Assembly (NCBI GenBank): GCA_001724265.1
Contig: MEDY01000161.1
Span: forward strand, 1 to 64,000
Direction of reading: 5' to 3'
Origin: Rhizaria sp. SCN 62-66
Taxonomy: Eukaryota
Length of the DNA: 64,000 nt
Shown here: positions 10,556 through 62,210 of the stretch, piece by piece
Position numbering within the stretch: the first letter of the stretch is position 1
How the letters are laid out: the number at the start of each line of letters is the position of its first letter
Made by a program: the position numbers and the translations under genes
The notes under the pieces: generated by a model
Told to the model about the DNA's origin: nothing
Seen by the model: only the letters and a program-made list of their open reading frames with translations
The model's database searches: none

Positions 10556-11068
10556 GTTAGCGGTGTCATCACATCGTATGTTTAAACTTAAAGCTTAAGC
10601 ACACAACAAAAATTCACGTGCAGAGAAACTCGCGTGCAGAGGCAATGCCGCGCAGATAGCATTGCACAAAACCAGTTGTGTCTCAAAATTCGATAGCAAA
10701 ACAACAAAAGAGAAAAAGAGCGATCAGGAGAGATATAGCGAGTGTGTGGAGGGAAACGGCGGGCAGTGAAGAGCGATTTTGGTGGTTACGCGGGCGCTCT
10801 CACAGTGTACTGCTGATCGCAATGTAGCGTGCGCAACGCAACAGACCATAAAAGCCCCTTAACACTGGCCGCGCCTCTGACTTGACTGCACGTCTCTCTC
10901 ACTGTCTCATTTCTCATTCTTCTTAAGCTTGACTATTTGTTGAAACAACTGAACACGGAGAGGTGAAACCATTCGCGAACAGTTTCTAGAAACCGGCATA
11001 AATGCGACATACACTATGGAATGACCATGCGCAAGCAGTGGCTTAACTTTACACACGCGGCTTGACTT

Positions 11069-13667
11069 TTACGCGTGCGTGTGGTGCGCCGCAGGTCCCA
11101 CGGCAGCGGCCGCCGCCGCTGCCGCACCAGACGCGGCTTTGCTTGCAGCCGCCGTGGACGACGCGAAAAGCCCGCCCGTCAGCGCAGCGGCGGCGCGACG
11201 CTTAATCTCACCCCAGAGCATACGGCGCTCGATACCGACGCCGCCGAGCATGTTGGAGTTTTCCTTAGCACGGCGGATGAGGTACGGCAAAACGTCCATC
11301 ACAGGGCCGTAAGGAACGTACTTGAACGCGCGGAGCCCGTGGCGGGCGAGCGTGTAGGTGAGGTGGTCAGCCATGCCGAGGAGTTGACCGAAGCACACGT
11401 TGCCGCGCACGGCTGCGACCTGGGCAGGGGTGTGGATTCCGTCACTGGCTAAAGACTCGAGACGTGAGGCCACGTGTTCCAGGGACGTCTGGTTGTGGGA
11501 CGCGATCAACAGCGCCACACGCGGCTCCGGCGCAGCAGCAGCGGAACTCGTGCCGATATTCATGGGTGTCTCTGCAGCAGCAGCAGCAGCAGGAGCGCCT
11601 GCGCCGGAACTCGCGACGGTATTCACGACGGGGGCACTCGCGTCGATGGAGGCAATGAGAGCGTCGAGGACAAGATCCGTCGTTGCGAAATAACTCGCAT
11701 GCGTCTGCTCGATCGTATCCCACACGGGGGACGGCTGGCCGAGGCTCTCGGCGCGAATCCGCTCCGTGTCCATGTACGCACCGCGGACGAGCTTGGCGGC
11801 CCAGACCCACCCCTCGCGCTTGGCGAGCGCGAGGTCAGCGGCGACACGGGCCGGAGCGTCGCGGAGATAGCATTGGTACGTGTTCCAGACCGTCGCGGCC
11901 GTGGTGTTGTGGGCGCGCTGCATGTCCACCACGAAGGCGTCGATCAGAGGCTGGAAGTAAGTCTGTTCAGCGTCAACAAGGAGACCGACTTGGGCGGCAG
12001 CGGCGGCGCGCGCGACGGAGTCGAGACGTTGGGCGACACGGGCGACGCGGCGCTCGTCCTCTGCGTCCCAAAGGGCCTCGGAGCGAGTTCCTAAAAATAT
12101 AGCAAAAAGCACAAAATATATATATTGTATATAAAGAAGCACAAAATGAGTGATCATTGAATGAGACTAAACTAATTCATTACAAAATACTGAAATACAC
12201 AGTGAAATAAAACAATTAAATTGATACCCGCGCATATATCGGAGATATATTCGAAGACGTACCGGGAGGCAGAAGCACAGCCGCGAGCCCAGTGCCAGCC
12301 GCCGCATGGCGCGCCAGCATCTGGATCTGCGACAGCGAGAAGCCCAGTGCCCAGTCCTTGGCCGACACACCGGCGGTGGGGTCCTCAGCAGAGGCGAGGA
12401 GACGGGCGGCCGTGGCGGCGCGGTCGGGGGCGGGGAGCGCGGGGAAAGTGGCCGCGAGGAAGGCAGCGAGGGGCTCAGCGGTGAGGCGGAGAGGGGCGGT
12501 GGCAGAGAGGTCGACGCCGGTGGCGGGGGCCGGGGCGGCGGAGGGGAAAGCGGGCGCGGGGAAAACCGCGCGGAACGCGTTGACTAGAGTGGTGCCACGC
12601 TCCAGAAGCACGGGATCGGCCAGCGCGGTGAGCTTGATCGCGCTGAAGCCAGCCTCGGACCCCTTGGCAGCGACCTTGGCAGCGGCGTCGTGGTTGTGGG
12701 ACGTGTTGGCACTGTCGTATGAGTCGCGGACAGCAGTGATACACTTGAGGAAAAGCTGCTCGTGGTGGTCACAGCTGGCTTCGACGGACTTGGAGTAGCG
12801 AGGGTGCCCCTTTTCGCTCACATCAGCCATCGCAGACGCCGTGTTCGCGGCGGCCGGCGTGTTGACACCGGCGGCGCTTGTTGAGTCAGCAGAGTTGGCA
12901 GCGGCGGCAGCGGCGGCGTTGAAGGCGCCGGTGGCGGTGGGGGAGCTCGCGAGGTCGGCCTCAGCGGCGTAGTCGAGGATACCGCCGATACCAGACCGCT
13001 GCAGGCGTGCGATGGTCGGCTTGATCGACTCACCGTCCTCACCAGCGCAGAAGTGGGCGAAGAAGGTAGGCCGCATCATCGCCGCGACGGCCGCGTCGCC
13101 CAGGGAGCGGCGGGCGGCGCGGACGAGAGCGTCGGAGTGGGTGACGAGGGGCTTGACGCCACAGAGAGCGAAGATGGCCAGGGCGCGGGCGAGAGCGGAG
13201 GTGGGGAGAGCGGCATAGGCGGTCCGGGTGTCCGTGAAGTCTATCTTATCGCCCGCAGAGGAGGAAGAGGACCCGGCGACGGCGGAGGAGACGCCCGAGG
13301 AGGAGGAGAGGGCGCGGGTGGAGCCGCGGAAGAAGCCCGGGGGGAATGACGTGGCCTGCTGGGCATGGTGGGCGGAAGCCCCGACACTGCCGTTGACGCA
13401 AGACGCGGGGGAGCGGCGGCTCAGTGGAAACTGCTGCTGCGAGGAAGAGGAGCGCGCAGCGGCGAGAGGGAGACTGCTGAGGGCAGCGCGCGGGCCACTG
13501 GTGACTACGCCAGAGGCGGAGAATGACGGGTCATTGTGCTGGGCGTGGCAAGGAGAAGTGAGGACGACTGGAGTCCGACGTGCCACAACCCCGCTGCGGG
13601 AGACAGCGAGGGCACGGAACGAAGTGCAGAAGTACTTGGAGGTGGAGCGGGTAGAAACGAAGGCCAT
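11069..13667 (-). CDS. PRODH: Mitochondrial proline dehydrogenase, 2 exons (13667-12263, 12090-11069), ~808 aa
   Basis: Motifs TFFAHFCAGE, ILDYAAE, AIKLTAL, LLVDAEQTYFQP, NTYQCYL, KLVRGAYM, ASHN, FGQLLGMAD and KYVPYGPVMDVLPYLIRRAKEN. The GTACGT...TTTTAG intron (12262-12091) joins in frame (LPPG/TRSE). Ser/Arg-rich presequence-like N-terminus. Confidence 0.95.
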
Positions 13668-19634: not shown

Positions 19635-20895
19635 GAAACCAGGGCTGAAAAGAATATTATTCAGCCCACTTTTAGATCAAACTTGTTTCTGCTATGGAAC
19701 GCTTTAGAAATACGAAAATATGAAGAAAAGATGCACCGGCCGCGTGAGAATGAAGGCGAAGCAAGAGGTGTTGGAGTCGTTGCCGAGCAAGTTATCGGAA
19801 ACGCAAACCCCGACTTTTATCATCGTGATTATAGAATTTTCAAATAATATTTCAAGATATCAGCTTATTTAACTTTGGTTACAACTGCAATTTGAAATCA
19901 AACGTCGCAAATCACGGAGATATTCAGCAATAACAAATACTTCAGTGATGACGAAAAACAAGAAACAAACAGCTGTATCATCGAGTGGACTCCATGTAAC
20001 TGATTAGCGCATTTATATTGTTGAGTATGATATAACTTGGGTCTATACTTTTATCATCGCATAATTTTTGTTTACATGACTTATCTGTACATATTTTATC
20101 CCTTGAAACAGCAGTCCCTATAGCAAACAGCTCTTGAAGATGTTCACACCATGGCATATCTTGCGTATATAAAGAGCTATCTTAGATCTGACATTTTATT
20201 ATGCGTTTAAACAATATTTTAATCAACATATTGCATTTATACGACGATATATAATGACGATCAAGCATGGCAGCATGTCACGGGCAATTTTGCTGTCGGC
20301 AAATTTGCTCGTGGCTGGTGCGCGGCGCGACGGGCGCTTTTGTTGAGCAGCTTCGCGATTGACTTATATTGCGGTGAATCCTCCGTTAATTGGAGGTTTT
20401 CGCCTACTTCCCAAAACAACTCGTGTATATATATTTATGCATATTAATTATATTTCAAAATACTCTTATTGAATAACGAAGTTCACTTTTTCCGATCACC
20501 GTCGTCCGACGAGTCACTGCCACGCCCACACACTCCTTCCTTTTCTCCCGTCACTCTCACTTCATCTTCTTTCCCCCACATCTCTCGCCTTAGCACGCCA
20601 TCATCCCGCAACTGCACCCTTTCCGAGGCATGCTCCAGTGTTTGCTTTGCGCGATATAACCACTCTGACGCATCCCCCTCCCAATTGTTTGTCTTTAGTC
20701 GTGACCGTCGCCCGCCCGTTGCCTACCCCCGGTGATCGACTCAAGTCAAACACGCTCGTCTCTTCTGACCCAACTGCGCGCCATCGCTAGAACACTGCTT
20801 GACAGCCACGTTTTCGAGTGGTCTGTTGAGTTGGTCTTCTTGGCCCTGCAGAAACGATGATTCGCGCAAATTAGTTCCTCGAAGCTATCTTTAAC

Positions 20896-22943
20896 ATGCT
20901 CACATTGGGTACGCTACCACGCGCTCTTTCTGACCTTTAACACTTCCCCTCTCTCTTTCACGCCAACCTATTATTGCTTGAGCATTGTTGCCCTTTGCTT
21001 GAACCACGCATATTCGAAACTTCAACACACAGCTCGCAATCGTTTCATCTTGTGTGCAACTTTTGTGATTGCGTTGCGTTTCGCCACAGTCACGTGTTAT
21101 GCTTATGCTCACTCAACCATTATGACTTTATCTCATATCCCTTTTTTTCTTCTTAGTCGGCGGCCTTGTGCTGCTCGTTATTGAGTTTATTTCTAGTGAA
21201 AGCGTTTTCCTCTGGCTCCAAACCCCCGGCGGACCTGCCGTACGTGCCTTTTTCGTCATCTCAGTCTGTTTCCACGTGCTTTATCTACACCACATGCTCG
21301 CTGGCCCCTGTCTCCGCTCCGGCAGCGCCCCCGCACTTGCCCGCGCACGCGCGCACGCCCACGCCAAACGCGGTGTCGGCGGCGGTTTAATGCAAGGCGT
21401 CGTTCTGCTACACTTGGTCGTGATCTTCTTCCTGCTTGTCTGTGCTTTCACGGGACAGGATGCTGCTTTATCCATGATCACAATGTGTTTGAGTGAGCTT
21501 GCTAACGTTCCGCACACTCGCCGGACTCTGTCGGCGATTGCGCGTGAAGCTGTTGCAGCTGAAACCGCCGCCGCCGAGGCCGCTGCCGCTGAGGCGACCG
21601 CCGCTGCCGAGGCAGCAGCAGCAGCAACAACGGCTGCGCAATGCACCGATGAAAGCAGCCACAGCATCGACAGCTCTAGCAGCGACAGTAGCGATACCAA
21701 TAGCAATTGCAATAGCTCCGGCACTAACAGCCATGGCGACGAAGCCAACCCTGCCAATGCCACTGCCTCTGCCACTGCAACTGCAACTGTGACTCGTAAA
21801 GCAGCACATTCTACAACAGCTGTGGCCTCACCTGCAACTGCGTCTGTGCCTGTAGTGCCGACTGTGCAGTTATCACGCACCAAACTGACTTTGGCTGTAT
21901 TGCGCGCGCTCTGGACTTTCTTCTTCGCCTCTGCAATCGCCCCTTCGTCGTCTTTTTTGCAGCTCACTGCGTCTCACGGCAACGGCGGCCTTCTGACCGG
22001 AACTACGAGCAGCGGCAGCCACAGCAGCGGTCGCAGCCACGGCCACGGCCATCGGGCTTATGAGGACTCTGGACTGGTCAGCAGCGGCAGCACTGGCGGC
22101 GCGGGTGCGCAACGGAGGAATGCGCGCAGCGGCAGCGTCAGTCTGAGCGCCAACAGCACTGCGAAAGGCAAGGGTGCTGTTGCTGGCTCTGCTAATAATG
22201 CAGCTGCTGTTCTGGTTGGTTCTGGTAAGGACGGCAGTGGTGGGACGAAGAAGGTTCCGCTCACCCGAACTAGCAGTGGCAGCGCTATTCCTGAGCACCG
22301 AAGCAACAGCAAGAGCAACAACAACAACGATAATGTCAACGAAAACGACACTATCGATGACGGCTCAAACGACAATGATGATGACGACGACGACGAAAAC
22401 GACGGTGACGATGTGTTTGACTCGAGCACAGACAGTCGCACTGCCCCGATGAACACGCCACAAACGCACTCGCAGAGTCAGACGGCGACCGCGAGTGCAA
22501 ACAGGTCTGGTTTGCTTGCTGCCCGCGTTCGCCGTCAACAGCAAGTTTTACGCCGGACAGCGCACGGCATCGTGATCGCCACCGACTCTGACGGCTGCTA
22601 CTCGCAAGGAACCTACTCCAGCGGCTTATATTCGGGGTCCGGAACAAGCTCCGGTGGCGGCAGCAGCTCTGGCGGCCGCCGCGGATGGCGCAGCTCGGGC
22701 AGCTCAGGCCGCGGCGGCCGCAGGGGCGCGGGGGGGCCGCCAGACGTGCCTGTCCTGCTCATGTTTGTCCTTTCACGGCTCTCAATCGTGTACTTCACTG
22801 CGCATGTTGTTTTGCCTTACGCGGCGCTTGATGCGACGCGGTTGGGGCACGTGTTGTATATTCTTGTCGCGATTGCAGGCCTGGTTGAAGGATGCCACTT
22901 GCGGGATGCACCACGTGCGCTGTCGTTCTTCCGCATGTACTGA
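20896..22943 (+). CDS. TLC (TRAM/LAG1/CLN8)-domain-like membrane protein; exons 20896-20908 and 21157-22943; true N-terminus uncertain
   Basis: Hydrophobic helices carrying YLHH, CLSELANVP and FVLSR in TLC-like order, split by a long low-complexity insert. The GTACGC...TTCTTAG intron joins in frame (MLTL-V-GGLVLL). Confidence 0.55.
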
Positions 22944-23787
22944 GAAATGACCGTGGACAGCAATGTTTAGTTTATTGTTTCATGACTTAAGTTGATTATT
23001 ATATTTGAACTTCATTTTGTTTATTCTCTTAGTATGGGGATACTCCTCTCCCCCGCAGTGTGATCATCGTTGGTGTTGTGACGACGACTGACAGTGGCAA
23101 ATGACTGGCCATGTCGCATCTATTTATAAGCATGCAATAGCAACGAATCAATTCAATACATAGCTACTTTTCCTTTCAAAACGATCATCCACCGTATACG
23201 ACACTGAATGTAGCGAACAATGCATCTTAAGCAGCTTTCGTAGCTAGACTGGATTTGACTCAAAATCACTAGCCAAAACGAGGGCGACGACGAGAGTGCT
23301 TCAAAGGAGCGTCGCCACCATCACAATCGTCGTCGTCGTCGTCGTTGTCGTTGGTGCTATTGCTGTTGTTGTTCTCAGTGATAAACGCATCAATACCCTC
23401 ATGAGTACCCTCATAGGTACTGCGGCGCTGCACGATAAGCTCGCGAATTTCATCACTCATAGCAAATCAATGCCCTTGTAATTTTGACAGCCGAGATATC
23501 GTCTTTCACAAAACAGCTCCGCTTACGTGCGATAATACAAAAGAACGTGACTTGAATAAATACTGTACATTATGTATCAACAAATCAACGCCATCAAATA
23601 GACGTATATCAAACTTGGAGAACAAAAAGAAAGCAAAGAAAGCAAATCACGGCTTTGTCCAGAGCGGCAACACATTACTCGCTATACACTCGCACTGGAC
23701 GGGGAGGACACTTAGTTAAAACATTATTTTCTTCTTCTTCTTCTTCTTCTTCTTCTTAACACTAAGAGCGCACGGCCATATGTGGTC

Positions 23788-24714
23788 TCAGGCGAGCTGG
23801 TTATACATAGCGCGTAATTTTTCACGCGCCGCCTGTTCACGCTTCTCCTGCTCCCCGCCGTCCCCATCGCGCTTCAAACGGATCCTCTGCCCAGTCAAAC
23901 TACTGTACCGTTTCTCATCTTCTTCGTTATCAGACGACGAAGATGACGAGCCATCGTCGAACGCACTCCGCACACGGGGTTCTTTGCCCTTTTTATCCTT
24001 TTTATCGCGTGTTTTGTCCTTTTTGTCGTTTTTCTTGTCGCTGCGGCGGCGGTCACTGCGGTCGCGATCGCGCTCACGGTCACGCTCACGGTCACGCTCA
24101 CTGCGGTCACGGCTGCGGCTACGGCTGCGGCTCCGGCTGGGACTGCGGCTATGCCGGCGGCGGTGGCGGCGGCGGCGGTTACTGCTACTGCGGCTGCGGC
24201 GGCGGCTGCGATCACGGTCACTACCACTACTGCCACTGCCACTACTGGGACTTCGGCTGCGGCTTCGACTTCGACTGCGGCTTCGGCTACGGCTGCGGCG
24301 GCTCTGATAGTGATGACGACGACGACGCCGGTGGCCGCTGCTGCGCCCACTGCGACTGCTGTCCCGATGACGGTCACTGCGATCACGGCTGCGGCTCCGG
24401 CTGCGGCTACGGCTACGGCTGCGGTCGTTGCGATCGTTTGAGCGCTTAGGACTGCGGCTACGGCTGCGGATATGGCTGCGGCTATGGCTGCGGCCAGGGC
24501 TGTGACTCTTTGAGCGAGAGCGCGAGCGTGCGTGTGAGTCAGTGCGAGCGTCGGAGAGGCGAGGGGGTTCAGATCGACGAGCGGGATCAGAGGAAGAACC
24601 AAGTTCAGTAGAAGAAGAAGGCTTGTCTGTGACCAGCGGCGGCGCGGCCTCAGCCTCGCCAACGGCGGGCTTGCCGGCCGGAGAGCGGGAGCGAGAGCGA
24701 GAGCGAGACGCCAT
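23788..24714 (-). CDS. Arg/Ser-rich (RS-domain) nuclear protein, 308 aa
   Basis: RS/RD/RE dipeptide runs, a Lys-rich segment and a short non-repetitive C-terminus (SSLTGQRIRLK...REKLRAMYN). ATG to TGA. Confidence 0.75.
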   Translation of the reverse strand: MASRSRSRSRSPAGKPAVGEAEAAPPLVTDKPSSSTELGSSSDPARRSEPPRLSDARTDSHARSRSRSKSHSPGRSHSRSHIRSRSRSPKRSNDRNDRSRSRSRSRSRSRDRSDRHRDSSRSGRSSGHRRRRRHHYQSRRSRSRSRSRSRSRSRSPSSGSGSSGSDRDRSRRRSRSSSNRRRRHRRRHSRSPSRSRSRSRSRDRSERDRERDRERDRDRSDRRRSDKKNDKKDKTRDKKDKKGKEPRVRSAFDDGSSSSSSDNEEDEKRYSSLTGQRIRLKRDGDGGEQEKREQAAREKLRAMYNQLA

Positions 24715-25475
24715 TGTGGATCAGCGGTGACGCCTCCGCAGACTCCAGGAAGAAGGAGAGAGTCGGTGAAACGTGTGGGATTCCGTGAGGCTGCGACCTG
24801 CAACTTCTCAGTGCTCACCAATATCAGACGGGTCTGGTAAGCGCTATTAGAGTGATACAAATGCGCGAAAGGCGCAGACCACCATGGAGAAGTGTGAGGC
24901 CGTGGCGCGTCAAGGGCGCGGGCCGGGCAGGAGCGGTTGCGGCATCCCGGAGAGGTGACGGCAGGCCACCGCGGTGGGGACAGGGACAAGGCAGACGAGA
25001 GGGGTAGAGTGTGAGTTCCACTGATAGCTTTGAAGGAAACAAACCAAATAATTAGAAAATAAAGTACAAAATATCTTCATAAATCGCAATCTCTGCGCTA
25101 AACAACGATGTATATTGTGACTTTGAGGTGCGCTTTAGTATAGGTGTGACCGTTCAGTTCGGGGCGGTGGCTCGCGCCCAGCCAAGTTGGGGGTTTCTTT
25201 TCCAATACTTGGCGAAGCTGCATGTCGACAAATAGACGTGTATTCAAACTATGTACTTTAATTCTCACGCACGTATTCTATCCCTATTTAATTCTTCCGA
25301 ATTTTCTGACTAGCCTCTCAAATCCACTCCATCAACCGCCTCCTTTGCCCTCTCTCGCCTTCCCGCTATCCCAGCACTCTCCCCCGCACCCTTTTACACA
25401 CCTTCTCCCTTCCACACATCCGTCGCACTGCTCTGCGATCTGTTTTTTTGCGTGCGCGCCGCGTGACGTGACGTG

Positions 25476-28400
25476 ATGGCAACCGTGGGCGACACTAAGC
25501 CCGCCCTGGTGGCCGGCGCCGGCGGAGGCCGTTCGCTTAACGTCGGCCCCGGAAGCTCAGCCGACTTAGCTGCGCTGCTTGAAAAGGCCAAGAAGAGCTT
25601 CATCACCAGCACTGAAGTCCAGGAATACGCTGTTGCGTGGATTCGCCAGCAGCTCCACTCGTACGTTTCGCTTCTTCCTGCTCAAACAAAGCTAGATACC
25701 ACTGTTACGCTCGAGCTCTCTCTCGCTGCTCCTCTTTTCTTGGAGCATGTTTTTAACGCCACTATATCACTTTGATGAACGAAATCTTCATTTTTCATGA
25801 CTTATCTTTCTTGTTATTAACTAAAATGTTGATTTTATCTCTCTAACTTCTCTCATTGTGCGCCACAACACCTACAGCGATGAGACCGAATGCGTCCAAA
25901 AGGACAAGTACCTCGTCCTCCAACACCTCGGCGAAGGCGGATTCGGCTCCGCGTACCGCGTTCTGAACCGCGAAGACAACCGCTAGTACGTCCTCAAGAT
26001 GATTCGCTGTGCCTCCGAGTCTCAGCTTGAGCAAACCGTCATCGAAATGGTCACCATGCGTCTCTGCTCTTCCCCGTTCACCGTCCGCTTCGTTGAATTC
26101 TTCCAACACGACCTCGAGGTCTATCTGGTGATGGAATACTGCAGTGAAGGTGACCTCGGTGGCCGTCTCCGTGAACTCCGTCGTCCCCCGTCCCAGGAGC
26201 AAGTTCTCCGTTGGTTCACCCAACTCACCCTCGGTCTGGCGCGGATCCACCGCATGGGCTTCCTCCACCGCGACATCAAGCCGGGCAACATCTTCTTCGG
26301 CCGTTGGGATGTCGTCAAACTCGGCGATTTCGGACTCGCAGCCCTCGGTGGCCGGCTCGTCAACTCGGAACGCGTGGCCGGAGGACTCGCAGGTACCCCC
26401 GGTTTCCTTTCTCCCGAAATGCTCCGCGGGGAGCCCTACAACGCGAAAACCGACATCTGGGCTCTCGGATGCACCTTATACGAAATGCTCACGGGCCGCT
26501 CAGCCTTCCGGGATCTATACGGCGGGCGTCATCAGACTGGAGGCGCAGTCGGTCCGGGCTCTGGCGTCCTCGTCGGTGCCCAACTGCCGCGCCGCCACAT
26601 CGCCTCCCATTTCTCCCCCGAACTCGTCGACGTTCTCGCACTTTGTTTGGACCCGTCCCCGGAGTCGCGCCCGTCGGCGGCTGAGCTGCTCCAGCTCCCC
26701 GTGCTAGCGCGTACTCTCCCTTTAGTCCAAGACGAGCTGGAACTCCTGGAACGCGTGACGGCGCTCGAAGACCGGCTTGGTTACGACGCCGCGGCCCGGT
26801 CCCTGCGCAACGTCACGGCACGCTACATGCCCACCAACCGCTTCCTCCGTCTAGGCGCCGGCGCCGCTGTCCGTGGCTACGAGATGGTCTGCGACGTAGG
26901 CACCCACCTGTTCAACGCGGTGGTCTGGCTCGGGACGGGCGTCTTCTCCCCGCAGGAGCTGCCCACCGTAGCCAAGACGCGTCTCGCAACGGACTCACAG
27001 CTCAACGACCCGCCGACCCGCGCCGCTCTGGCCGCTACCACGGCTCTCTGGGTGCCCCTGCTCCTCGCCGCGCTCGGTCTGCTTGCCGGTGCGCTGTCCT
27101 CCCTCGCGCTGCGGTACTGGCGCCTCTTTGCCATCTCAGCCCTCTGTCCGCCGGTGACTGCACTCTGTGTGCAGATCGCCCAACGGCAGCTGCGCAGGCC
27201 GCAGGCTCCGCTCCCGCCGCCTCGCCCCCCTCGTATCACCACAAACGCAAATACGGGGGCGAACACGGGGGTGGTCACGAGGGCAGGTGCTCCAGTCGTG
27301 GCCGTCTCTGCCGCCGCTGTGGAGGCGATCGACGGCGCCCGCGCCCGCGCCCGCTCCGCCGTTGCTTTCGCCCGAGAACTCCTCGCAGGCGCTTCCGTCC
27401 CCTCTTTCCTCTCCGTCCCCGCTCCTCCTCTCCACGCCAGGCTATCCACCCTCGCGCTCCCCGTCACCTGGCCGACGTTGGCCCGGCTCTGCTGCTTCCT
27501 CGGCGCCGCGGTCTGGGCGATCGAGCTCCTGTCAACCCTCGTCCCGCCCGGTCGCGGCGTCTGGGGGCATCTGTTCTACGGTGCCCTGTCGCTCTTCGGC
27601 GCCGCTGTCGGGTACTGGATTGCCTGTGTCGCCCGCGCCGCCACCGCCAACGCGGCCGCGGCGGCGCTTGCGGGGGGAGCCGGTCAGCTCGGCCTCGGTC
27701 CTCTCGGCGTAGGGCTAGGCTTGGGATCGGACTCCGATTCGGAGGACCTCTTTGACACTTTCCCCCCCACCACCAGTAACGCCAACCCCCTCACCACAAA
27801 CGCGAAGAATGCGAATCACAATACCAATGGCAACAACGCGATCTCCGCCCCGTCCCCCCGCAACAACACCGCTGTCGCCGCGATGACCGGCGCTGGCGCT
27901 GGCGCGGGGGCGGCTACTTTGCCCGCCGCCGCCGGTGGGACTGCGGCCACCGCCCGGCCGCGCGGGACCCCGTCAGCTCTCCGCGGCGCTGCCGGGCAAC
28001 GGCTAGTCCACGACTGCGCTCTATACGCCGCCGCGGGCGTCGCCGTGGCGGTCGCGGTTGCGATGGGCGCCGCCGTGGCTCCCAGCGAGGACCCGGAAGC
28101 CATCATCGCGGCCGCCGCGGCCGCCTCTGCCGCCGCCGCGCCGGGAGGGCCGGACTCAGCAGCCGCCAAGGCCGCGGCCGCCGCCGCCGCCAAGACCGCG
28201 AAGAAGGCTCTCGAAGCTGCCGCCGCTAAGGCCGCCGCCGCCGCTGCTGCCTCCCCAGCTGCTGCCAAACTCGCCGCCGCCGCCGCCGAATCCTCCGCCC
28301 GTTTCCCTGCCCTTGCGCTCCTGTTTCTCCTCGCGCTTTTGACTCTCGCGTATGCCATTGCGACTGCGAAACCCGTCCGTCCTTACGCGCGCCGTGCGCT

Positions 28401-29067
28401 AGCTGCCCTCCGTAACCGCGCCCGCGCCGCTTTGCTGCCCCCGGCGCTGACGTCAGCGGCCGCACTTGCTGCGACGCTCACGTCCCCTCGTGCCGCTGCG
28501 CTGCTACTGCAGGGCACGGGTTCCGGCACGGGTCCCCTGGGTACCGCGGGAAATAATAATAAGGTGGTGTTGATGTCGCCGCAACAGTCACCGGTTCCCG
28601 CGAACACCAACGGCAATAACGCTCAGTTACTCTCTTCCCCGCAGTCGTCGTCGTCGTCATCGTCGAGCTCGGCATCCGCGGCGGCGACGGCGGCGGCGGA
28701 GCAAGTTCTCAAACAAGCTCCTCTCTTTGCAGTCACGGACGCTGTTTTAGCGTTTGTGGAGCAAGCTTGGCAGCCTCTCTCCGCCGCCGCCCTCGGCACC
28801 CTGTTGTTTTTCACTGTCCCCCACTGGCGCTTCACAGGGACTCGCCCTACCGACGCTGGCGGCGCCCCGGTGCCGATGGTCTTGCTCCTGCTTTTACCGG
28901 TGGTGATGCTGCTGGCTCTGGGGACGATTGCCCGGGACGCGCGTCACGAAGGCGGGGGTTTGGTGTCGGCGTCATTGGTGAGGTTTGTGATCCTCCCGTC
29001 GATCGTGACGTTTTTTTTGTTTTTGTTTGTGCAATCGTTTCTTGTGTCTATTATGAACTATTCATGA
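25476..29067 (+). CDS. NEK/NIMA-like Ser/Thr kinase with multi-pass membrane C-terminus; exons 25476-25660 and 25878-29067; contains an in-frame TAG at 25984-25986
   Basis: LGEGGFGSAY, YVLK, VMEYCSEGDL, HRDIKPGNIF, KLGDFGLA, GTPGFLSPE, PYNAKTDIWALGC. About 9 hydrophobic helices downstream. The intron GTACGT...CCTACAG keeps the frame. Confidence 0.8.
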
Positions 29068-30134
29068 AGTGTTGGTTGTTCGTGTGAGTTGTTGTATTCG
29101 TGCGTTCCTTCCTGGTTACTCGTGAGTTTTGTGTAATCTAATGATGAACTGCGCTGCTGCTGGAACCAGTGTTTCTTGATAGTCTTGTCTATAATATTCT
29201 TACATAATGAAAATACGCGTGTGAACATCATCATTGCATGGTTTTACGTCCTAATAATCACAAAAGCACTGGTAGTTCCATCGAGAGAGAGATGTATAGG
29301 AGCAGTCTACCAACACTTGCATAACTTCAGTCTTCACTTCAGTCACTGCTAAGTGTTCCGCTGCATGCTAAAGACGTGTGTGCGTGCTATTCAGTGCTGT
29401 GTGGGGCCTTTCTGTTTGCGTTTGACAATCGCCGTCGCATGTCACTGTGTTGTATATCTATTTGTGATTATTGGTGTCCGTAAACCTTATCATAACCCTG
29501 TGGTTTTGCTGTTACTTTTCGCTCCACCCGTGTCTCATTTCTTTACTTTCCCACCTCATCCCTTTGTTTCTTTAATAATTATGTTGGTGATATTGCCTCT
29601 CCTGCAAGTTCAATTCAGCTGGTATGATTTTCAGTTTGGTAACTTTGCTTTTTAGTGTATAATTCCCCCTCGCATGGGTTTGTCTGCATGATGAGTGCAT
29701 TGTTGGCTCACACAGGAGACGACTAAAGGGGTGGAAATCTGTTTTTATATTTGTATAGATAACTTTTTTGCTCTAACGCCGACAAATACAACATAGTATT
29801 CTTGAAAATCAAGCATATTTTGTTGGCGTCACATCTGACCACAAACCGCGATTGATTTTGACAGCGACGTGACAATGAGTGACTTTGACGGCGAGACCCA
29901 GTGACATATCGAAAGAGCAACGGCTTGCGTCATCACGAAACGAATCAATTGTGTCCGACTTTGAGCAGCTTGATGTCCCGCGTTTCACCGTTGATTGCTA
30001 AACCGGTTTGAATTTAAGATACGCAAGTTGATTAATTTTATTTTAATAAATTGCCACTATCTCTGATGCGACAAAACCCTCACCAATATGCCGAATTCCG
30101 TTTGCTCGTGCCTCACGCCCCAACCACAGAAGTC

Positions 30135-32983
30135 ATGGCAACTTTCCAAGCAACCGTGGCGCCCATGCCCACGGGCTTTTCTCACCTCGCCTACACCAAC
30201 ATGGTACGCATCCCCGATAATATTTGTTTTGCCCAACTAATATTTCTCTCTCCTCGCGCTTTCTTGGCTTTGCGCATCTCTTAAGCTCAACCCGACTCTG
30301 AATCTCCACTCTGTTTTGTGTTGCCCTCACCTTTACTTTCAATCTGCTTTCTCCCAACAAACCTCTTTCTTTTGCGCAGGTGTACACGCGCACGCGCCCC
30401 GCCGGCGCGACAATGGCGTGGGTCAACGACCAGATCTACGCCTGGAACACCCTCGACCAGCTCGGTGAACACGACGTCGCACTCAACGCTCTCCAGCGCG
30501 AAGCCTGCGGTGTTTCCCAGGGCCAGGCCGTCACCCTCCGCGCCGCCGCGGCCGCCGAGCTGCCCCAAGCCTTCTCCGTCCGCGTTACGCTCGACCTCAT
30601 CACCAAGCGCAAGGCCGAGCTCAAGGAGGAGGACGTGGCGGCTAAACTTCTCCAGCTCTTCGCTGGCCAGCCTGTGTGCCGCGACGGCGTGTGGGCGATG
30701 GATTTCAACGGCACTCCGCTGCGCCTCACCGTCACCAACTGTACCGGGCTCAACCCGGGCGCCGCTGGGGGCGAAAGCAAGGAAAGCAAGGAGCATATCT
30801 CCAAGGTTGTCCCTGCCGCCATCCTCGCAGCTGCCACCGAAGTCGACATTGTCCCGAATAAGGACAACAAGCTTCTCGTGCTTGAGAAGAGCGAGAGCAA
30901 GAAGCACACCCGTATCTTCGATCCCAACTGGCGCTTTGAGGACATGGGCATCGGTGGTCTGGACGCAGAGTTCTCGTCCATTTTCCGTCGCGCCTTCGCC
31001 TCGCGTCTCCTGCCCCCCAAGTTCATCCAGGTACGTCTTAGATTTCCGGCTGTATATCTTCATGTATTTGAAATATTGAATATTTTTTCAGTGCATATTA
31101 CTGTTATATATCTGTATGTTACGTTTTGTCTTCTTAAGTGAATATCTCATTGATGTATACTCTTGTTTGTTATTTTATCTGGACCTTGCGATGTTTTGTT
31201 TGTAGGACCTCGGTATCAAGCCTGTCAAGGGTATGCTTCTCTACGGTCCCCCCGGTACTGGTAAGACTCTCATCGCACGTCAAATCGGTAAGATGCTCGC
31301 TGGTCGTGAGCCGAAGATTGTCCACGGTCCTGAGATTCTGAACAAGTTTGTCGGTCAAGCTGAGGAGAACATCCGTAACCTCTTCGCCGACGCTATCCAG
31401 GTACGTTCCACATATTCCGTGCTTAAAAGTTACCTCTATAACATCAAAATCAACTATAATTTTGCGATAACATTTAAATCACTAAAATCTAACTTATTAT
31501 TAACTTTTATTTCTTTAAAAAATTATAAATCTAGGACTATGCTGAGAACAAGGAGAACTCTGACCTCCACATCATCATCTTCGACGAAATCGACTCGATC
31601 TGCAAGGCTCGTGGCTCTGTCCGCTCTGGCACCGGCGTCCACGACACTGTCGTCAACCAGCTTCTCACCATGATCGACGGTGTCGACTCCCCCAACAACA
31701 TCCTCGTCATCGGTATGACCAACCGCAAGGATCTGCTCGACCCTGCCCTCCTGCGCCCAGGTCGTCTCGAGGTCCACGTCGAGATCTCCCTCGCCGACGA
31801 GCACGGCCGCCGTCAAATCATCGACATCCACACCAAGAAGATGCGTGAGAGCAACGTTCTCGCCGACGACGTCGACCTCGACTTCATCGCGAAGCATACC
31901 AAGAACTACTCCGGTGCCGAGCTCGAAGGTGTCGTCAAGGCCGCCGCTTCGTACGCCATCTACGCCGCGGTCCAGGTCTCCGGCTCTGGTGTCGCGCTGA
32001 AGGATGACTACAAGGCGATGAAGGTCCGCATGGAGCATTTTCACCTTGCGCTCGATGAAGTCCGCCCGGCGTTCGGTGTCGCAGAGGACGAGCTTAAGGC
32101 GCTGATGCCGCAGGGCATCACCGACTATAGCACTGAGCACGACTCGCGTTTCCGCGACCTCCGCAGCGAAGTTGATAACCTTGTCAACGTGCTCCGCGAC
32201 GACGACCGCAAGTCGGTCACCACTGTGCTGCTCAAGGGTCCCCGCGGCTCCGGTAAGACTGCGCTCGCGGCTGATTTCGCGATTCGCTCTGGTTTCCCGT
32301 TCGCGAAGCTGATCGCGCCGCACCAGTTCATGGGCATGCCTGAGACTGGCAAGGCGTCCGAGATCGGGCTCGTTTTCGACCAAGCGTACAAGTCCCCTCT
32401 GTCCGTCATCGTCATCGATAACCTCGAAGTTCTGCTTGACTACGTTGACATCGGTCCCCGATTCTCCAACGTCGTCCTCCAGTCCCTCGTCGCTGCTCTC
32501 GCCCGCCCCCATCCTGAGGGCGCGAAGCGGAAGCTGCTGATCATCGGTACCACGAGTTCCTACCGCGCTCTCCGCGAAGTCGGCCTCGCGAACGCGTTCC
32601 AGTTCACTGTCGATGTCCCCGCGCTTAACTCACTCGAGGCGGCGCGTGTACTCGAGGCCACGAGTACCTTCGCCTTCCCCACCACCCCCAAGCTCGGTGG
32701 CAGCCCCACAGTCTGCTCCCAGTTTCCCCTCCCCGTCTCCGTCTCCACAAGCGAGATGCTCGATCGCATCCAGATCCCTATCAAGCAGCTTCTGCTCGTC
32801 GCAGGGATGGCGATTCATGATAACAAGAGTCAGCCGCTGGCGGTGCAGCGTGGGGAGCCCCGTGATGGGTTTAACATCGCCGCCTATAATGCACTGCGCA
32901 AGTGGATTGAGAAGTGCGCGGTTGATACGGACGCACCGGAGAAGCTTGCCGAGGCCATCATCAAGGCGCCCTTTTACGGCTAA
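30135..32983 (+). CDS. NSF: Vesicle-fusing AAA+ ATPase NSF/Sec18; exons 30135-30203, 30380-31030, 31206-31400, 31535-32983; ~787 aa
   Basis: [68 protein letters not shown], a second Walker A GPRGSGKT and IGPRFSN. Three phase-0 GTACG..AG introns. Confidence 0.97.
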
Positions 32984-33050
32984 GTGTGAAGCTTATCAAG
33001 GTGCCCTTTTGCGGCACACTAAGAGTGTGATCAAGGCGCCCTTTGGAGGA
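32960..33050 (+). repeat. Imperfect 35-nt tandem repeat x3 overlapping the NSF stop codon
   Basis: ATCAAGGYGCCCTTT starts at 32960, 32995 and 33030. Confidence 0.85.
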
Positions 33051-34448: not shown

Positions 34449-35784
34449 TCAAACACCAAAGTCTGACTCAAGCCTCGTCGGTCCTCGCATTCCCGCTCCA
34501 TTCACCGCTGCCGCATTCCCACCATTACCACCGCTGTTCACAGCCAGCCTCAACCCCGCCAACCCCCCAGCCTCGTTACCATGACCGGTATCAGCGGGAC
34601 GCGCCCACCGTGCCGCCGACGGCAACACCGCTCCCCCGGCGGTACCCATGGCCCCCGCACCAGCACCCGCGAGAGAACTCATGGGGGTACTCGCGCCCAA
34701 CGCAGCGGCCGTGGCGGCGTTGTTGTTGATGCTGTTGCTTTGAGCCCTGGCTACCGCGCTTGCTGGCAGCGGCACAGCAGCAGCACCGCGACTGCGCGCG
34801 ATATGGGAGCCGCCAGTCAAACCGGTCCCCCCCATGGAGGCCCCAGCGGCGGCGGTGGCGGCTGTTGTAGGGAGCAGTCCAAACGCACCGGTGCTAGATT
34901 GTGCCAGGGACGGCGGCTGTGACGGGGCGTGTGACTGTGATTGTGGGGCAGGACGACGGAGTAGCGAAGCCGTCGCCGCTGTGGCCGTCGATGCCACGCC
35001 AGCGACAGGCGTATTCCAGCCCCCGCTCCCGCTCCCGCCCCCGTTGCCAGCGCCAGTGCCGCTGCTGGTGTTGAGGTGAACGGAGTTCGAAGAAGCAGCG
35101 CCGGGCGCGTTTGTAGTCGAAGGGGAAAGAGAGTGCATTCCGCTATTATTGCTCGTAGCACTGTGAGCGGCAGTCGCGGGCGAGCCGGAGACTGAGGGGA
35201 AAGAGAACGCCGGTGTTGTCGTGGCATCAGCGCGCATACATAGCCACTCGCCGAGGACGACTGCGACGGCGGCGGACGCGATCGTGAGAAGCCAGTAAGA
35301 CCAGGAACGGGGAAAAGTGCCGTCCCATGCGGCGACGACGAGCGTGTGGAGGAAGTAGATAGTTGATGCGAAATCAAGGCAGAGACGTGCGCGTTGAACA
35401 ATGCGCACGAGCAGACGAGGGCTAAGTGACACAAACACATGAAGAAACAAAATAGGCACAAAAACAGTGAGACAGAGGCACTCAGTAGATCAAGAACAAG
35501 AAGGCGTCAATGTTCCAGAAAGAGCGGAAGAGATCTGATCCACCGAGGAGAAGAACGTACATGATAAGCGCAACGGAAAAGTGGATAGCGTAAGCACAGA
35601 AGCGGACGGGTGACTCTGGGTTCACAGGCGTTGCTGAGAAGATATACGAGAGTGAAAATTGATGTCCCAGCACAGTCGTCCAAACAGCGGTGGACACGAG
35701 CAGAAGCGCGTAAAACGCAGCCTGGAGAGTCAGAATTTGACGCACAATGCGGCGCGGGTTAAAACGCGGCTGCGCGGAGGACAT
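34449..35784 (-). CDS. SYS1: SYS1 Golgi membrane protein with long low-complexity C-terminal tail; exons 35784-35561 and 35421-34449; ~398 aa
   Basis: FNPRRIVRQILTLQAAFY, IVQRARLCLDFASTIYFLH, FPRSWSYW and LGEWLCMR are typical Sys1 motifs. The GTACGT..CTTAG intron is in frame. Confidence 0.9.
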
Positions 35785-39712: not shown

Positions 39713-41019
39713 GGTGAAAGACCGTGAGCGGTGACAAGAGCGTCCAGATATTCAAGTTGGGAGACTGTATTGCGAAGAAGGACTGCAAATACACTTAAGA
39801 TACTTAGATTCATCGCATTGAACTCAACTCAATAATGGAGCGTGAATATTCATGTTAATTCATTCATGACTCGTACATGACTACAACTGAATAGTGACGC
39901 AACGTGACAACTTTCCTCTTGGTTGAGAGTGTCAAGGTGTTGAGAACTCTACGGACTGTCACAATGATTGAAGTAAGACCAATTATAGGGACATAGAGAC
40001 AATACTTTCCAGATACATATTGAAGTTTCGTTTCACACACTCATGTTTTTTTCAACATACAAGGAGCTTAAGTTGAGATACCTGTCCTTTAGAGTTGAGC
40101 TTGAAAGCACTTTCTTGTATCGCGATACAGTGAGCTGACTGACCGCGAAAAGCGATTACTTTTAAGGGGGAGTTGCAAGCAGCAACTCACAATTGTATAT
40201 ATTTGCTGCATACATTGTGCAACCCTAAATTGAACTCCAACTCCTTCTGTTTTCCTCTTCTTTGATGTATGGGTTGTTGGCATTGCATCTTAATATGCGT
40301 CACGAAATATCTGAAGTGAAATACACGTATCGCGAGGTAGCACCAATGTCACAAGTACATTGTACATTGACCTAGGTGATGTACAAAGCTCATAATCATC
40401 TTGTATAATTTCATGATGCATCTCTAATAGTTTGACACCTCATACGTACGCGACATTGTTATGCTGACAAATACTACGTATATTAAGAGAAGACAAGTGC
40501 AATAAGAGATAATAATGTTTTCATAACATTTAAATGTAGGTTTTAAATTTAGAAACTTGATTTCGTTGTGATTTAACTCGATTTCACGAGTGTACCACTT
40601 AAAACATCTCTATACACGCCTGCATAACAACACTTGCCGAAAATGTGACCGTTGGAGCTCGGCAGTGGCAGCGAGCGGGCCGTTGGTGTGATTTGAAGGC
40701 GACATTGCAGTCCTTCAACTGAGCTGCATATCCAATGAAACAAGAATATAACGCACAGAGCAGCGTTTTGTAGTAATGAATATTTTGAAGTAAATCATAA
40801 TTTTGCTGTGTCTTGTATCTGTGTCTCAGGACGCGCTCTTTTGAGCCTCGTGCACGCTCCTCCCACTCTCACCCCCATATCCTCTCGCCACGCCACACCA
40901 CGCACTAATTTCTTCGCTAACGTTTCACTTCCCCTTTTAGCCTAAAACAAACAGCTTGCTTTCTTTTCGTAGAACCGCTAGATCCATTTCACGACTCCTC
41001 TAACAATCGAGACCACAGA

Positions 41020-44000
41020 ATGAGCCGCGAGGTCAGCCCGGAGCGTGCCCCCGCCGCGCCCGCCGCGCGCGTGGCCCCCGCTGCCCGTACTGCCGCCTCC
41101 GCCGCTGCCCGCCGCGCCCCCGGCCGCGCGCCCGCGCTGGACGACGACGACTCGGACCCCGAAGGCACTGCTCTTCAGTCTGCTCTGTCACAGCCCCACG
41201 AAGACGACGACGGCAACGACGACAACGACCTCGACCGTCACAACGACAACGCTGATACCGAGGCTCCCGTGCCGTTCCGCTCGTCCTCGCCGCCTCTGCC
41301 CGCGATGCGCGGCCCCGCTGCCGCGCCCGCCGCCGACGAGCGCCCCCTCGGTGGTGCTCATTCCGGCTCCGGCGGCATCGAAGAGGCCCCCCTGCGCGCT
41401 TCCAGCGTCTTTAACAGCAGCGCTAAGGACCCTTTCGCCGGTATGGCCGACGCCTACCCGCCCGGTTTCGACCCCGCGTCTCTCGAAAACAATAGCGCTG
41501 GTGCTGGCGGTGACGACGGCACTGGCGGCGGCAGCGCCGATGATTCTGCCTGGGCATCCCTCCCGGTTGAAGACCGCTTCGTCCACAAGAACTTCAAGGC
41601 CCGTATCTCTGCGTACGACGAACTCCGTGCCGCCGTTGACGCCAGCGTTGCCCGCGGCGAGCGTGGCGCTACCTCGATGCTGCTGAACGAGCGCGCCGGC
41701 CTGCTCCGTGGTGCGATAAAGAAAGAGCCCCACGCACTCGCCGGTGAGAAACTACTGGATCTGCTCTTGGCGTGGGCTGACGCCGCCGCACCAGCACTGG
41801 CTCAGTCGTGCGCGGAAGCCTCCGCCGCCGCGGTGGCCGAGCAGCTCAAGGGCCGCCCCGCCGCGGCCGCTAAGGCGCAGGCGTTGCTGTTGCTGTTCAT
41901 CGAAGTCGGTGGCTGGGAGCCAGTTTTAGACGCTCTCGCAGCCGGTGGCAAGGGGAAGAACCCCAAAGCCGCCGCCGAATGCGTCCGCACGCTTCGCACC
42001 GCCGTCGCCGCGTTTGGCCCGCGCGTGCTGCCGCCGCAGAAGCTGCTGAAGCCGCTCGCGGCATTGTTGGGATCTCCCGCAGACGCAGTGCGCCGAGCCG
42101 CCGCTGAGCTCGTGTGCGAACTCGACCGGTGGTCGCCGCCCGGAGTAATCCTTCAAGCTCTGCAGGGCCACGACGTGCGCCCCGCGGTGATCAAAGAGGT
42201 CGGCGACGCTATCGCGCTCGCGGCCACGCGCGCGGCCGCCGCTGAGGAAGGCGTTGCGCCGCCGCAGGCGACGCGGTTTGTGCGCGGTAAAGACGGCGCC
42301 GCCGCGGCTGGCCGCCCTTCAGTCGCCACCGCGGGCGGCGGGTCCCGCGCCTCTATGGCCGGCGCTGCCGGCGCGGACATGGGCTTTACGATTGAGCTGC
42401 CCGCGAAGGATGTCTGCGCCGAGCCTCAGGATTTCGCCACTGCATTTGAGGCCGCCCCTGTGTGGGCAGAGCGCCGCGCGCTCTTGACCGGGCTCTGCAC
42501 TGCGGCCGCGGGTGCCTCGCGCGTTACCGTTTCCGGCGCGACGCACAGCGCGATGGCTGTCGTCCGCAAGATTGGTTTCAGTGACCCCAACGCCGCTGTT
42601 GTGGCTGAGTCGGTCAAGGCGATCGCGGCGCTCGCGCGCAAGGCTGGCCCGGCGTTCGCGCCCGTTGCGTCCAGTCTAATTGGCCCTATGCTGGCGTTGC
42701 TGAGGGAGAAGAAGCCCGCCGTCGCCCGCCCGCTTGAAGAGGCCCTAGACGCGCTTTGGAACCCCGGTTGCATTGACCGCAGCTCAGCTTTCGATGCTGT
42801 TGCCAAGGCTACCGCGAACAAGGTCATCGCAGTCCGCGCCGGCGCCTGCGCCTGGCTCGTCCGTGCGGCTTCTCTTTCCGCCGCCGCCCCCGGTGCCGCG
42901 GCAAAGACGCGCCCTCTCGGCGGCGGCCGTGGCGACGAGGCCGTGACGGCAGCGCTCGGTGATGCGCTTGTTCCGCTGCTCGACGAGTCAGACTCGACCG
43001 TCCGCGTCGAAGCGCTCGAGCTCTTGGCACGCCTCGCTCTCCCGTTGCGCAAGCGTTTCGACGCGTTATTGAGCAAGCTCCCACCCAAGCGTGCTGAGCA
43101 GCTCCGTGAGCGCGTCGCTCAAGTTGCAGGCTCCGACTCCGTTGCTGGGTCTGCGGGGAGTGACCAACAGGAAGACTCTGGTGACTTTGGCGGCCGTGGT
43201 GCCGGTGCGGCGGCGACTCACCGCGGCAAATCTACAGTGTCGTCGCCGCAGCGTCCTACAGCACGTCCTTCCACATCCTCTAGCAGCAACTCCAGCTCGA
43301 GCTCGAGCTCAAGCAGTGCACGCCCTGGCACTGCCGCCGCGACGGGCGCGCCGTCTGCCCGCGCCCGCCCCGCTACCGCCGCCACCGCTACTTCCAGCTC
43401 CGGCGCCGGCTCTGGCGCCAGTGGAGCTGGAGCGCCGAAGCTTGGCGCGCCGTCCAAGGAGTACAAAGACGCTGTTGCGTTCGCACCCGAGTCCGTTCTC
43501 CCGCTTGAAACAGCGCAAGAACGTCTCAGTGCGTTAGTTGACCCTGATCTGCTCGGTCCGGAGGCGCTCAGCTCGAAGAACTGGAAACAAGCCTCGGACG
43601 CCTGTGAAGCGTTGCAGACGGCGTTGCTTGACTTGCCACCAGCGCAGTTGCAAGAGGCTGTGGCGCCGCTTTTTTCGGTCCTCAAGGCCACCCCCGGCTT
43701 CGGTCCAGCGCACGCCGCCGTCGGGAAAGCCGTCTGCGAGCTTTTAACTGCCGTTGTGGCCGATGTGCCGGCAACCGCGGTGACCCAGACGCAGGCGGCG
43801 CGGCCGCTCGCGGACTTGCTGCCGCGCCTCACTGACCGCAAAGTCGCTGATGCCGCGCTGGCACTGCTTTCTGCGCTTTCTGAGTGTGTCGGGCCCTGTT
43901 TCGTGCTTGTGCAGCTCCGCGCCCGCGCCGCCGCTCTCAAGGCCCCCAAAGCCGTTGAAGCCGCCGCCGGCTGGGTCGAGACAGTGCTCCGCGAGTTCGG

Positions 44001-47000: not shown

Positions 47001-48203
47001 TTCCTCCCAGCAGCCGCGCTCGAACGGCCGATGCACCACCGCCTGTGCAAGTACGCTCTCAACACTGTCATGGAGGTGTTTAAGCATTCCGCGCTCGCGC
47101 TTGCCGTGCCGCAACCGACTCTGCGCCAGCTTCACTTGGCGCTGCTGGGCCGGCTGCTGGATCCGCGTCTCCGTACGCAGCGTCAGGATCCCGAGGTGCG
47201 CGGTCTCGTCAAGGGGCTTAACGTGCTGATGCTGAAGGTTCTCGACGCCGGCGGTTTCACAGCGGGTTTCGTGACTTTACTCGACTTCCTCACGGAAGGA
47301 TGCGCAGACTCTCAGCAGAAGGTGTTCACCGATCTCGTCGTGCGCTGCGTTGTCAAGCTTGCGAAGAAGCTTGCCGAGCGCGTTGACTCGCTTGACGTCG
47401 CTGCTGTATTGGGCGCTGTGCACGTCTTTCTCGTCCGTCACCCGCCCGCGTCGTTCGCAGAGCAAGGGCGTGATGATATGCCGCTCAAGACGGTACGCAC
47501 TGTCGTGACAGAGCTGATTAAGCTGCGTGGCGAGGCGCTGCTCCAGGATATGGGTGAGCTGCCCGGCAACTCCCGCGTTGTCGCATGGTTCCACGCTATC
47601 TACGCCCACTTGCGCCAGCAGGCTGAGGCTGAGGCCGCTGCGGCCGCCGTTGCTGCTGCCGCGAGCCCTGCTGATTCCGGCGAAGCCGAAGATAGCGTTG
47701 GTGCGCTTCGCGCGCTCACCAACAACAACAACGCGGCGACTGCGACTGCAAGTTCTAGCATTTCGCCGTCGCCGATTGCGCTGGGCACACCGATGACGCC
47801 CTCAGTCCCCTCCGGCCCGGCCCCGTTGGCGCCTGCCGACGCTGCTGTCCACACCGCGCTGAACGCGATCTGGGAGCGTGTGCGCACGAAGGAAACCTCG
47901 GCTGATGGATTGATTGAGCTCGCTGCGTTCCGCCGTACGCACCCGGATGCGCCTGTGGAGGAATACATCGCGAAATCGTCCAGTTTCTTTGGCAACTATG
48001 TGCGTCGTGAGCTGGAGAAGATTGAGCTTGCGGAGGCCGCACGCGCTGCCAAAAGCGCTGCTGCAGCTGCCGCGATGGCCGCCGCTGCGCCCGAAGCTGA
48101 CGATGATGCTGAGGGCGATGTTGACGCTGATACGTACGCTGCGGATGCCGCTGCAGCTGCTGCAGCGGAGGCAAATGCTGACGCTGAGCCTGAGGAGTAC
48201 TAA
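41020..48203 (+). CDS. CKAP5: XMAP215/ch-TOG/MOR1 microtubule polymerase; exons 41020-44475, 44656-45171, 45294-48203; ~2293 aa
   Basis: Tandem HEAT/TOG domains beginning LPVEDRFVHKNFKAR, VWAERR, SSKNWKQ and SKDWKERK. LREKKP and AFGPRV motifs, plus the C-terminal CKYALNT / LNVLMLKVL / DDMPLKTV block typical of the family. Phase-0 GTACG introns. Confidence 0.92.
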
Positions 48204-60624: not shown

Positions 60625-60696
60625 GGGGTCTTGGTGTATCGGTATCATACCTCTTTCGGGTAGAGGTGGTAGCGGGTTCAATTCCCGCAGACCCCC
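60625..60696 (+). tRNA. tRNA-Pro (anticodon CGG)
   Basis: Cloverleaf GGGGTCT/AGACCCC, anticodon arm CCTCT-TTCGGGT-AGAGG, T arm GCGGG-TTCAATT-CCCGC, C73, followed by oligo-T. Confidence 0.95.
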
Positions 60697-61416: not shown

Positions 61417-61488
61417 GGGGGTCTGCGGGAATTGAACCCGCTACCACCTCTACCCGAAAGAGGTATGATACCGATACACCAAGACCCC
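61417..61488 (-). tRNA. tRNA-Pro (anticodon CGG), identical inverted copy
   Basis: Exact reverse complement of 60625-60696, with an oligo-T terminator. Confidence 0.95.
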
Positions 61489-62033: not shown

Positions 62034-62210
62034 CGCGGCAGTGGGCAACATGCTGTACACATGCGCAGGCCGACTTTTCTTGTCGACACCGGAGGGGTTT
62101 GTATCCGGCAGGTTGCTCCTAGCCGGAGCAGCGGTAAGCGCAACCTGCCGGATCAACCCCCTCCGGTGTCGATAAGAAAAGTCGGCCTGCGCCTGTTGCC
62201 CACTGTCGCG
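62034..62210 (+). repeat. Long inverted repeat / fold-back hairpin
   Basis: 62063-62116 pairs with 62140-62192 (~53 bp, few mismatches). Outer stem 62034-62050 pairs with 62194-62210. Confidence 0.9.

Follow-up and report, generated by a model that had tools for sequence, protein, structure and literature searches.

Is the TAG triplet that interrupts the reading frame of a kinase gene in this DNA read as a sense codon, or is it an ordinary stop? It lies in the window, by which we mean the whole 64-kb stretch of DNA that was analysed, and the earlier note on this stretch had raised the possibility that UAG is recoded in the host. Around the triplet, the frame reads ...LGEGGFGSAYRVLNREDNR-(TAG)-YVLKMIR..., which places the TAG between strands β-2 and β-3 of the kinase domain (Table 1). 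On its 3' side, the frame stays open for 1026 codons (25987-29067) and stops at a TGA, in keeping with the roughly 1000 clean codons with kinase motifs that had been reported. Since exon 2 has no in-frame ATG 5' of the Gly-rich loop, an exon 1 is required, and the gene model that we read from the sequence has a putative first exon and a putative intron ahead of the exon bearing the TAG. This candidate intron resembles the other introns in the window, which measure ~130-220 nt and have GTACGT, GTCCGT, or GTACGC donors.

Table 1. Features of the kinase locus and of a further TAG discussed in the text.
Feature	Positions	Strand	Description
Second TAG	20872..20874	+	In the 5' leader of the next gene, where it terminates an upstream reading frame of 5 codons; non-coding
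Exon 1 of kinase gene (putative)	25476..25660	+	ATG at 25476; 185 nt, phase 2; sequence reading
Intron (putative)	25661..25877	+	217 nt, AT-rich, GTACGT donor, ACAG acceptor; sequence reading
Exon 2	25878..29067	+	In frame with the TAG; kinase domain and C-terminal region; TGA at 29065-29067
Protein kinase domain	25912..26703	+	Pfam PF00069, E = 6.3e-53; best solved relative human NEK1 (4apc), E = 1.2e-45
27-nt candidate mini-intron, rejected	25960..25986	+	Encodes VLNREDNR; GC-rich; GTTCTG donor
In-frame TAG	25984..25986	+	Four codons ahead of the catalytic Lys (YVLK); orthologues have Glu (GAA or GAG)

When the frame is read through the TAG, residues 21-284 match positions 2-262 of the 263-position Pfam Pkinase profile, a match that therefore spans the TAG. 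The catalytic motifs GEGGFG, VLK, HRDIKPGN, and DFG are all found. Position, frame, and a profile match running across the triplet bear out the claim that an in-frame TAG sits within an otherwise intact kinase domain. When solved structures are ranked, NEK1 (aligned over query residues 8-279) comes first, followed by STK4/STK3 (E ~1e-36) and NEK2 (E ~1e-34), and the source names of three database proteins (P0001, P0244, and P0246) are NIMA-related or Nek1. By these matches, NEK appears to be the closest characterised kinase group, and we call the gene NEK-like. The likeness is to the kinase domain of human NEK1, which is the best solved match, and the window kinase has HRDIKPGN and DFG. It differs from NEK1 in adding a C-terminal region of ~790 residues, which lies within exon 2, contains hydrophobic alanine-rich stretches, and is common only to the metagenome orthologues.

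As for the source of the DNA, the contig is eukaryotic, with GC-rich coding stretches contrasting with AT-rich introns and spacers, and the runs that best match the window are bioreactor and wastewater metagenomes. In protein searches, the top named matches of the NSF protein are plants, green algae, and Plasmodiophora, at ~50-53% identity, while the named matches of the kinase are Plasmodiophora (41%) and Balamuthia (40%). Judged by these matches, the host appears to be an uncultured eukaryote of wastewater bioreactors, unplaced in lineage, whose named relatives stand at 40-53% identity, and it does not appear to be an ascomycete or any other fungus. No ciliate-like trait was seen in the window either, which is GC-rich and has introns of 130-220 nt.

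The residue that preceded the TAG can be read from the orthologues. A 988-residue metagenome protein (P0244), encoded on a 17.9-kb contig, has 84% identity in the kinase part and 70% across the 711 residues that align; at the site it reads NREDNR-E-YVLKMIRC, with the same flanks as in the window. The codon at the site is GAA in the L002 locus (68% identity) and GAG in the L003 locus (45% identity), whose 1024-codon reading frame has the same architecture, and two other proteins (P0003 and P0004) also have E. Glu is thus present in all five of the closest orthologues. Across a wider alignment this column varies, with K, T, I, V, and M, and a residue is present at the site in 10 of the 11 aligned homologues that cover the region. 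Since the ancestral residue is Glu, the TAG is a single G>T step away from GAG. The Gln that had been expected from NEK1 does occur at this position in human NEK1, but it is not the residue of any of the five closest orthologues.

Apart from the TAG, the gene is well preserved. No second lesion was found in the 1026 codons that follow, and the exon 2 protein stays collinear with both P0244 and L003 as far as its last residues (...VTFFLFLFVQSFLVS...). In relative-rate counts, the window has 7 unique changes versus 6 in P0244 when L002 is the outgroup, and 21 versus 57 when L003 is the outgroup. The gene therefore shows neither a rate speed-up nor decay, which implies that the stop is either very recent or tolerated. 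A strain found in run X4 offers a further comparison, being ~0.8% divergent from the window (59 differences in 7568 bases, over the 8 pieces listed). Its contig over 25897-26954, which covers the kinase domain, has one difference in 1058 bases. This low divergence fits a gene under selection, but weakly so, because the 620 bases upstream (25307-25926), part of them in exon 1 and part non-coding, show no difference in X4 either. None of the 40 differences listed falls between 25306 and 29034, and the remaining 18 include, by count, one X4 change each of T>A, T>C, and T>G; the one difference in 25897-26954 may be position 25984 itself.

We then turn to how genes end in the window. Among 17 modelled gene ends there are 8 TAA and 9 TGA, and none is TAG, which upholds the earlier tally of 8, 8, and 0 in 16 genes. 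Five of the 17 ends (those of the proline dehydrogenase, NSF, mitochondrial carrier, and both kinase genes) find support in a domain or an orthologue that ends there. In non-coding DNA, TAG makes up 20.4% of the stop triplets (465 of 2275), and past the real stop it is the first in-frame stop to follow in 5 of the 17 genes and the second in 4. Finding no TAG among 17 ends has a P of 0.02 if the TAG share is 20%, and of 0.17 if it is 10%; a share of ~10% among stops is common in eukaryotes. Genuine though weak, the absence of TAG terminators is the sole positive evidence for recoding.

The density of in-frame TAG was estimated from codon usage. Both strands of the window together hold 897 TAG triplets, and the one at 25984 alone has a codon-usage signal on both flanks, its minimum log-likelihood ratio being 11.0 versus 2.7 for the next best triplet, with a training set that included the downstream flank of this TAG and left out the upstream flank. 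The training set consists of 13 long reading frames with 11,104 codons, of which 390 are ordinary Glu codons and none is TAG. The resulting density is ~1 in-frame TAG in 11,100 codons, or 1 in 17 genes. Two other TAGs had come under suspicion. The one at 20872, which had been listed as a second in-frame TAG, does exist, but it closes a 5-codon upstream frame that opens at ATG 20857 and ends before the likely start ATG at 20896 (with a GTACGC donor at 20909), and it is outside the coding sequence. The one at 63545-63547, adjoining the second kinase, was rejected as a candidate, as it falls in an ordinary AT-rich intron of the second kinase gene. Neither of these needs to be read as sense.

What, then, explains the TAG at 25984? 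An error of sequencing or assembly, the true base being G, is very unlikely, even though depth in the contigs, which are the form that the read evidence takes, is as low as ~5-6 fold. A separately assembled metagenome contig of 2465 nt (L001) corresponds exactly to window positions 24882-27346, TAG included, and in runs X2 and X3 the Logan contigs over this span show 0 differences and continue unbroken through the site, although the two runs yield identical pieces and appear to be a single data set filed twice, and all three may derive from one bioreactor population. Moreover, a 1022-residue protein that starts at ATG 25999, just 3' of the TAG (P0243), is recorded from three contigs. It is because a separate assembly and further contigs show the same TAG that we discount an error, and of the two prosaic readings that the earlier note had allowed for, an error or a nonsense allele, it is the second that is favoured. 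Forms with a sense codon at the site were also sought. Among the 120 matches listed in the full-length protein search there is no near-identical longer form, and what that search yielded was P0243, which starts after the TAG, and the 84% orthologue. With a 352-residue query, nothing near-identical was found at 193-616 residues, the top matches having 39-52% identity. Exact look-ups in the protein collection of 7 read-through forms and of 5 other start or fragment variants found none, and a pattern scan in which the T of the site could be any base gave 0 matches in the genome and viral contig collections. Even harder to credit is a wrong gene model in which the TAG is spliced out. There is an in-frame 27-nt GT...AG segment that ends with the TAG, and several exons in the window begin directly after a TAG acceptor (e.g., at 31535). 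However, this segment encodes VLNREDNR, which P0244 shares without change and which is also conserved in L002 and L003. The segment is rich in GC and has GTTCTG as its donor, in contrast to those introns of the window that could be read, which are AT-rich, have GTACGT-like donors, and are 5-8 times longer. Conservation, GC content, donor, and length together rule out the mini-intron, in agreement with the doubts already expressed about it, and splice arithmetic confirms that the frame would be lost if exon 1 were spliced to the AG of the TAG.

Two explanations would have the kinase made at full length despite the TAG. Gene-specific rescue, by ribosomal readthrough of the UAG or by mRNA editing (e.g., A-to-I, UAG to UGG), would agree with a downstream frame that is intact and a gene free of decay. 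A piece of the gene (27386-27777) is also present in a poly(A) RNA library of an X4-like strain, and editing that restores a premature UAG is reported from Fusarium (PMC10776026 and PMC11156358). Against readthrough, folding of the 120 nt that begin at the TAG is no better than that of shuffled versions (z = 0.20, with 118 of 200 shuffles at least as good). The stop stands in the context CGC-UAG-UAC-GUC, which is not known to be leaky: it is distinct from the UAG-CARYYA type, and it has no C at +4. Against editing, the product would be Trp, whereas the orthologues have Glu, and the host is not an ascomycete by its best named relatives. No RNA contig over 25984 is present among the contigs listed for run X5. 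Readthrough and editing, both of which had been proposed, are thus unsupported by structure 3' of the TAG, by its context, and by the residue expected, and we regard a rescue of this kind as improbable. The other explanation is that UAG no longer terminates translation and is beginning to come back as a sense codon, most simply for Glu. In its favour are the 0 of 17 TAG ends when 20-26% is expected under neutrality, the need for a residue at the TAG to keep the Gly-rich loop and the Lys at their proper distance (as is the case in nearly all aligned homologues), and a gene that is otherwise intact and not accelerated. On the other side, a lone in-frame TAG in the coding sequence is to be set against 390 ordinary Glu codons, a density far below that of every UAG reassignment described in PMC5304391, and at 10% TAG use the terminator tally has a P of 0.17. 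The trait of many conserved in-frame UAGs that marks reassigned codes is not seen here, where 1 of the 897 TAG triplets has a signal on two flanks. In the L003 relative, TAG is used as a terminator: 3 of 7 large reading frames stop at it, and one of these TAGs closes a DNA polymerase A gene, two residues past the last position of the Pfam profile (381 of 381). A change in UAG could not be traced among the close relatives, which have this terminator (L003) and GAA, GAG, or E at the site. Given the TAG terminators of L003 and the Glu of P0244 at 84% identity, any change of code would have to be very recent. A CUA-anticodon tRNA, another check that had been suggested, was not found in the 64-kb window, where the tRNA genes are two tRNA-Pro(CGG) only, and no eRF1 gene lies within it. 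We consider this explanation unlikely, if the least so of the alternatives. The recoding to Gln or Leu that the earlier note had put forward finds no support, in view of the Glu in orthologues, the lone TAG, the terminators of L003, and the tRNA genes of the window. That the host has dropped UAG as a terminator and uses it as a very rare sense codon, probably for Glu, with this kinase among the first carriers, is likewise improbable.

Known systems can be compared with the window. In PMC5304391, from which these counts are drawn, the rhizarian exLh (UAG = Leu) has 384 in-frame UAG in 71 genes, or 5.4 per gene, and Iotanema spirale (UAG = Gln) has 204 in 126 genes, or 1.6 per gene. The window resembles both in having an in-frame UAG in a conserved protein and in using only UAA and UGA as stops (56/15 and 104/15, respectively, versus 8/9 in the window), going by that text. 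It is unlike them in that it has a single in-frame UAG in 17 genes and in that the orthologues have Glu rather than Leu or Gln, again as these codes are presented in PMC5304391. Ciliate codes in which UAG is read as Glu, including one where UAA and UAG differ, are reported in PMC10553269. The UAG of the window resembles these in standing where Glu is expected, and departs from them, as they are reported there, in having no further UAG codons beside it. A-to-I editing of premature UAG is reported, in PMC10776026 and PMC11156358, for the sexual stage of ascomycetes, including the Fusarium kinase gene PUK1. Like PUK1 as portrayed there, the window gene has a premature UAG inside a kinase domain and is otherwise intact. 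Whereas the Fusarium editing reported in these two sources is confined to ascomycetes in their sexual stage and produces Trp, the ancestral residue here is Glu.

The reading that we favour, and consider probable on the strength of the sequence comparisons, is that the TAG represents a recent GAG>TAG nonsense allele, or a very young pseudogene, of a NEK-like kinase in one wastewater population. A G>T change would have turned the Glu codon GAG into TAG in one strain, recently. Under the standard code, translation would then stop after ~97 residues, ahead of the catalytic Lys. Since the first downstream ATG (25999) is just past this Lys, a restarted product would have neither the Gly-rich loop nor the Lys. 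A stop before the catalytic Lys, together with a restart that lacks loop and Lys, would make this a fresh loss-of-function allele or young pseudogene. That the TAG terminates translation in the host is the most likely course under this nonsense-allele reading; a second, intact allele may exist, and the site may be decoded or edited. As in an ordinary nonsense polymorphism or young pseudogene, GAG and TAG are one step apart, the rest of the gene is intact, and the change is seen in one population. There is no difference in kind from an ordinary nonsense polymorphism, the oddity being that the 17 gene ends of the window avoid TAG.

Were UAG decoded as sense in this host, this would be a new nuclear code, at an early stage, in a poorly sampled eukaryote lineage, and a nuclear stop-codon reassignment caught at the codon-capture stage outside ciliates. 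Such an early stage of reassignment is predicted by evolutionary theory and has rarely been reported. One in-frame stop and a stop tally of ~17 genes cannot carry that claim, and most such cases can be settled cheaply from the codons of orthologues, the density of in-frame stops, and the terminators of relatives. The observation made at this locus is real, and its meaning is ordinary: the TAG in the NEK-like kinase gene probably marks an unremarkable loss-of-function allele.

A strain diverging by ~0.8% from positions 20000-33000 of the window is present in the assembled contigs of X4, a 2025 activated-sludge run from a different study, and in its poly(A) RNA partner X5. The organism therefore recurs in studies a decade apart. 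Compared with the window, this strain carries small insertions and deletions at 20516, 21142, 23050, 23073, 23150, and 24610. Two GCC-rich runs drew hundreds of unrelated metagenome contigs, with depth up to 381 and many false joints, and contig depth and joints at these runs have no meaning.

Among the 17 modeled gene ends in our stop codon tally, that of the SYS1 gene is one of the least certain. The SYS1 domain occupies only residues 14-91 of a GC-rich open frame of 346 codons (34449-35489), the long tail of which may be untranslated sequence that merely lacks stops. A gene of the XMAP215/Dis1 type, with TOG domains, is split across three reading frames at 40921-48203, the breaks between which may be introns or a shift of frame. 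Both tRNA-Pro(CGG) genes are located in an inverted repeat whose 140-nt arms are 96% complementary and spaced by 702 nt. A second inverted repeat falls within or next to a minus-strand reading frame (61854-62558).

Coordinates of features in the window
Feature	Position	Strand	Remarks
C-terminal region of the NEK-like kinase	26704-29064		~790 residues beyond the kinase domain; counterpart at 10900-12874 of orthologue locus L003
tRNA-Pro(CGG)	60625-60696	+	inside repeat arm 60566-60705
tRNA-Pro(CGG)	61417-61488	-	inside repeat arm 61408-61547
Second inverted repeat, 43 nt	62059-62196		arms 93% complementary, spacer 52 nt
TOG-domain gene, frame 1	40921-44559		stop TAA
TOG-domain gene, frame 2	44656-45303		
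TOG-domain gene, frame 3	45294-48203		
GCC-rich, alanine-coding low-complexity run	28107-28700		
GCC-rich, alanine-coding low-complexity run	21565-21630		

As for the NEK-like kinase, a Pfam search assigned no family to its long tail, which contains conserved hydrophobic stretches (e.g., ...ALWVPLLLAALGLLAGAL... and, at the C terminus, ...VTFFLFLFVQSFLVS). By sequence comparison, these stretches are common to P0244, the nearest orthologue, a metagenome protein, with a looser likeness in L003. The NEK-like kinase with its hydrophobic tail may represent a membrane-anchored kinase family of eukaryotes.
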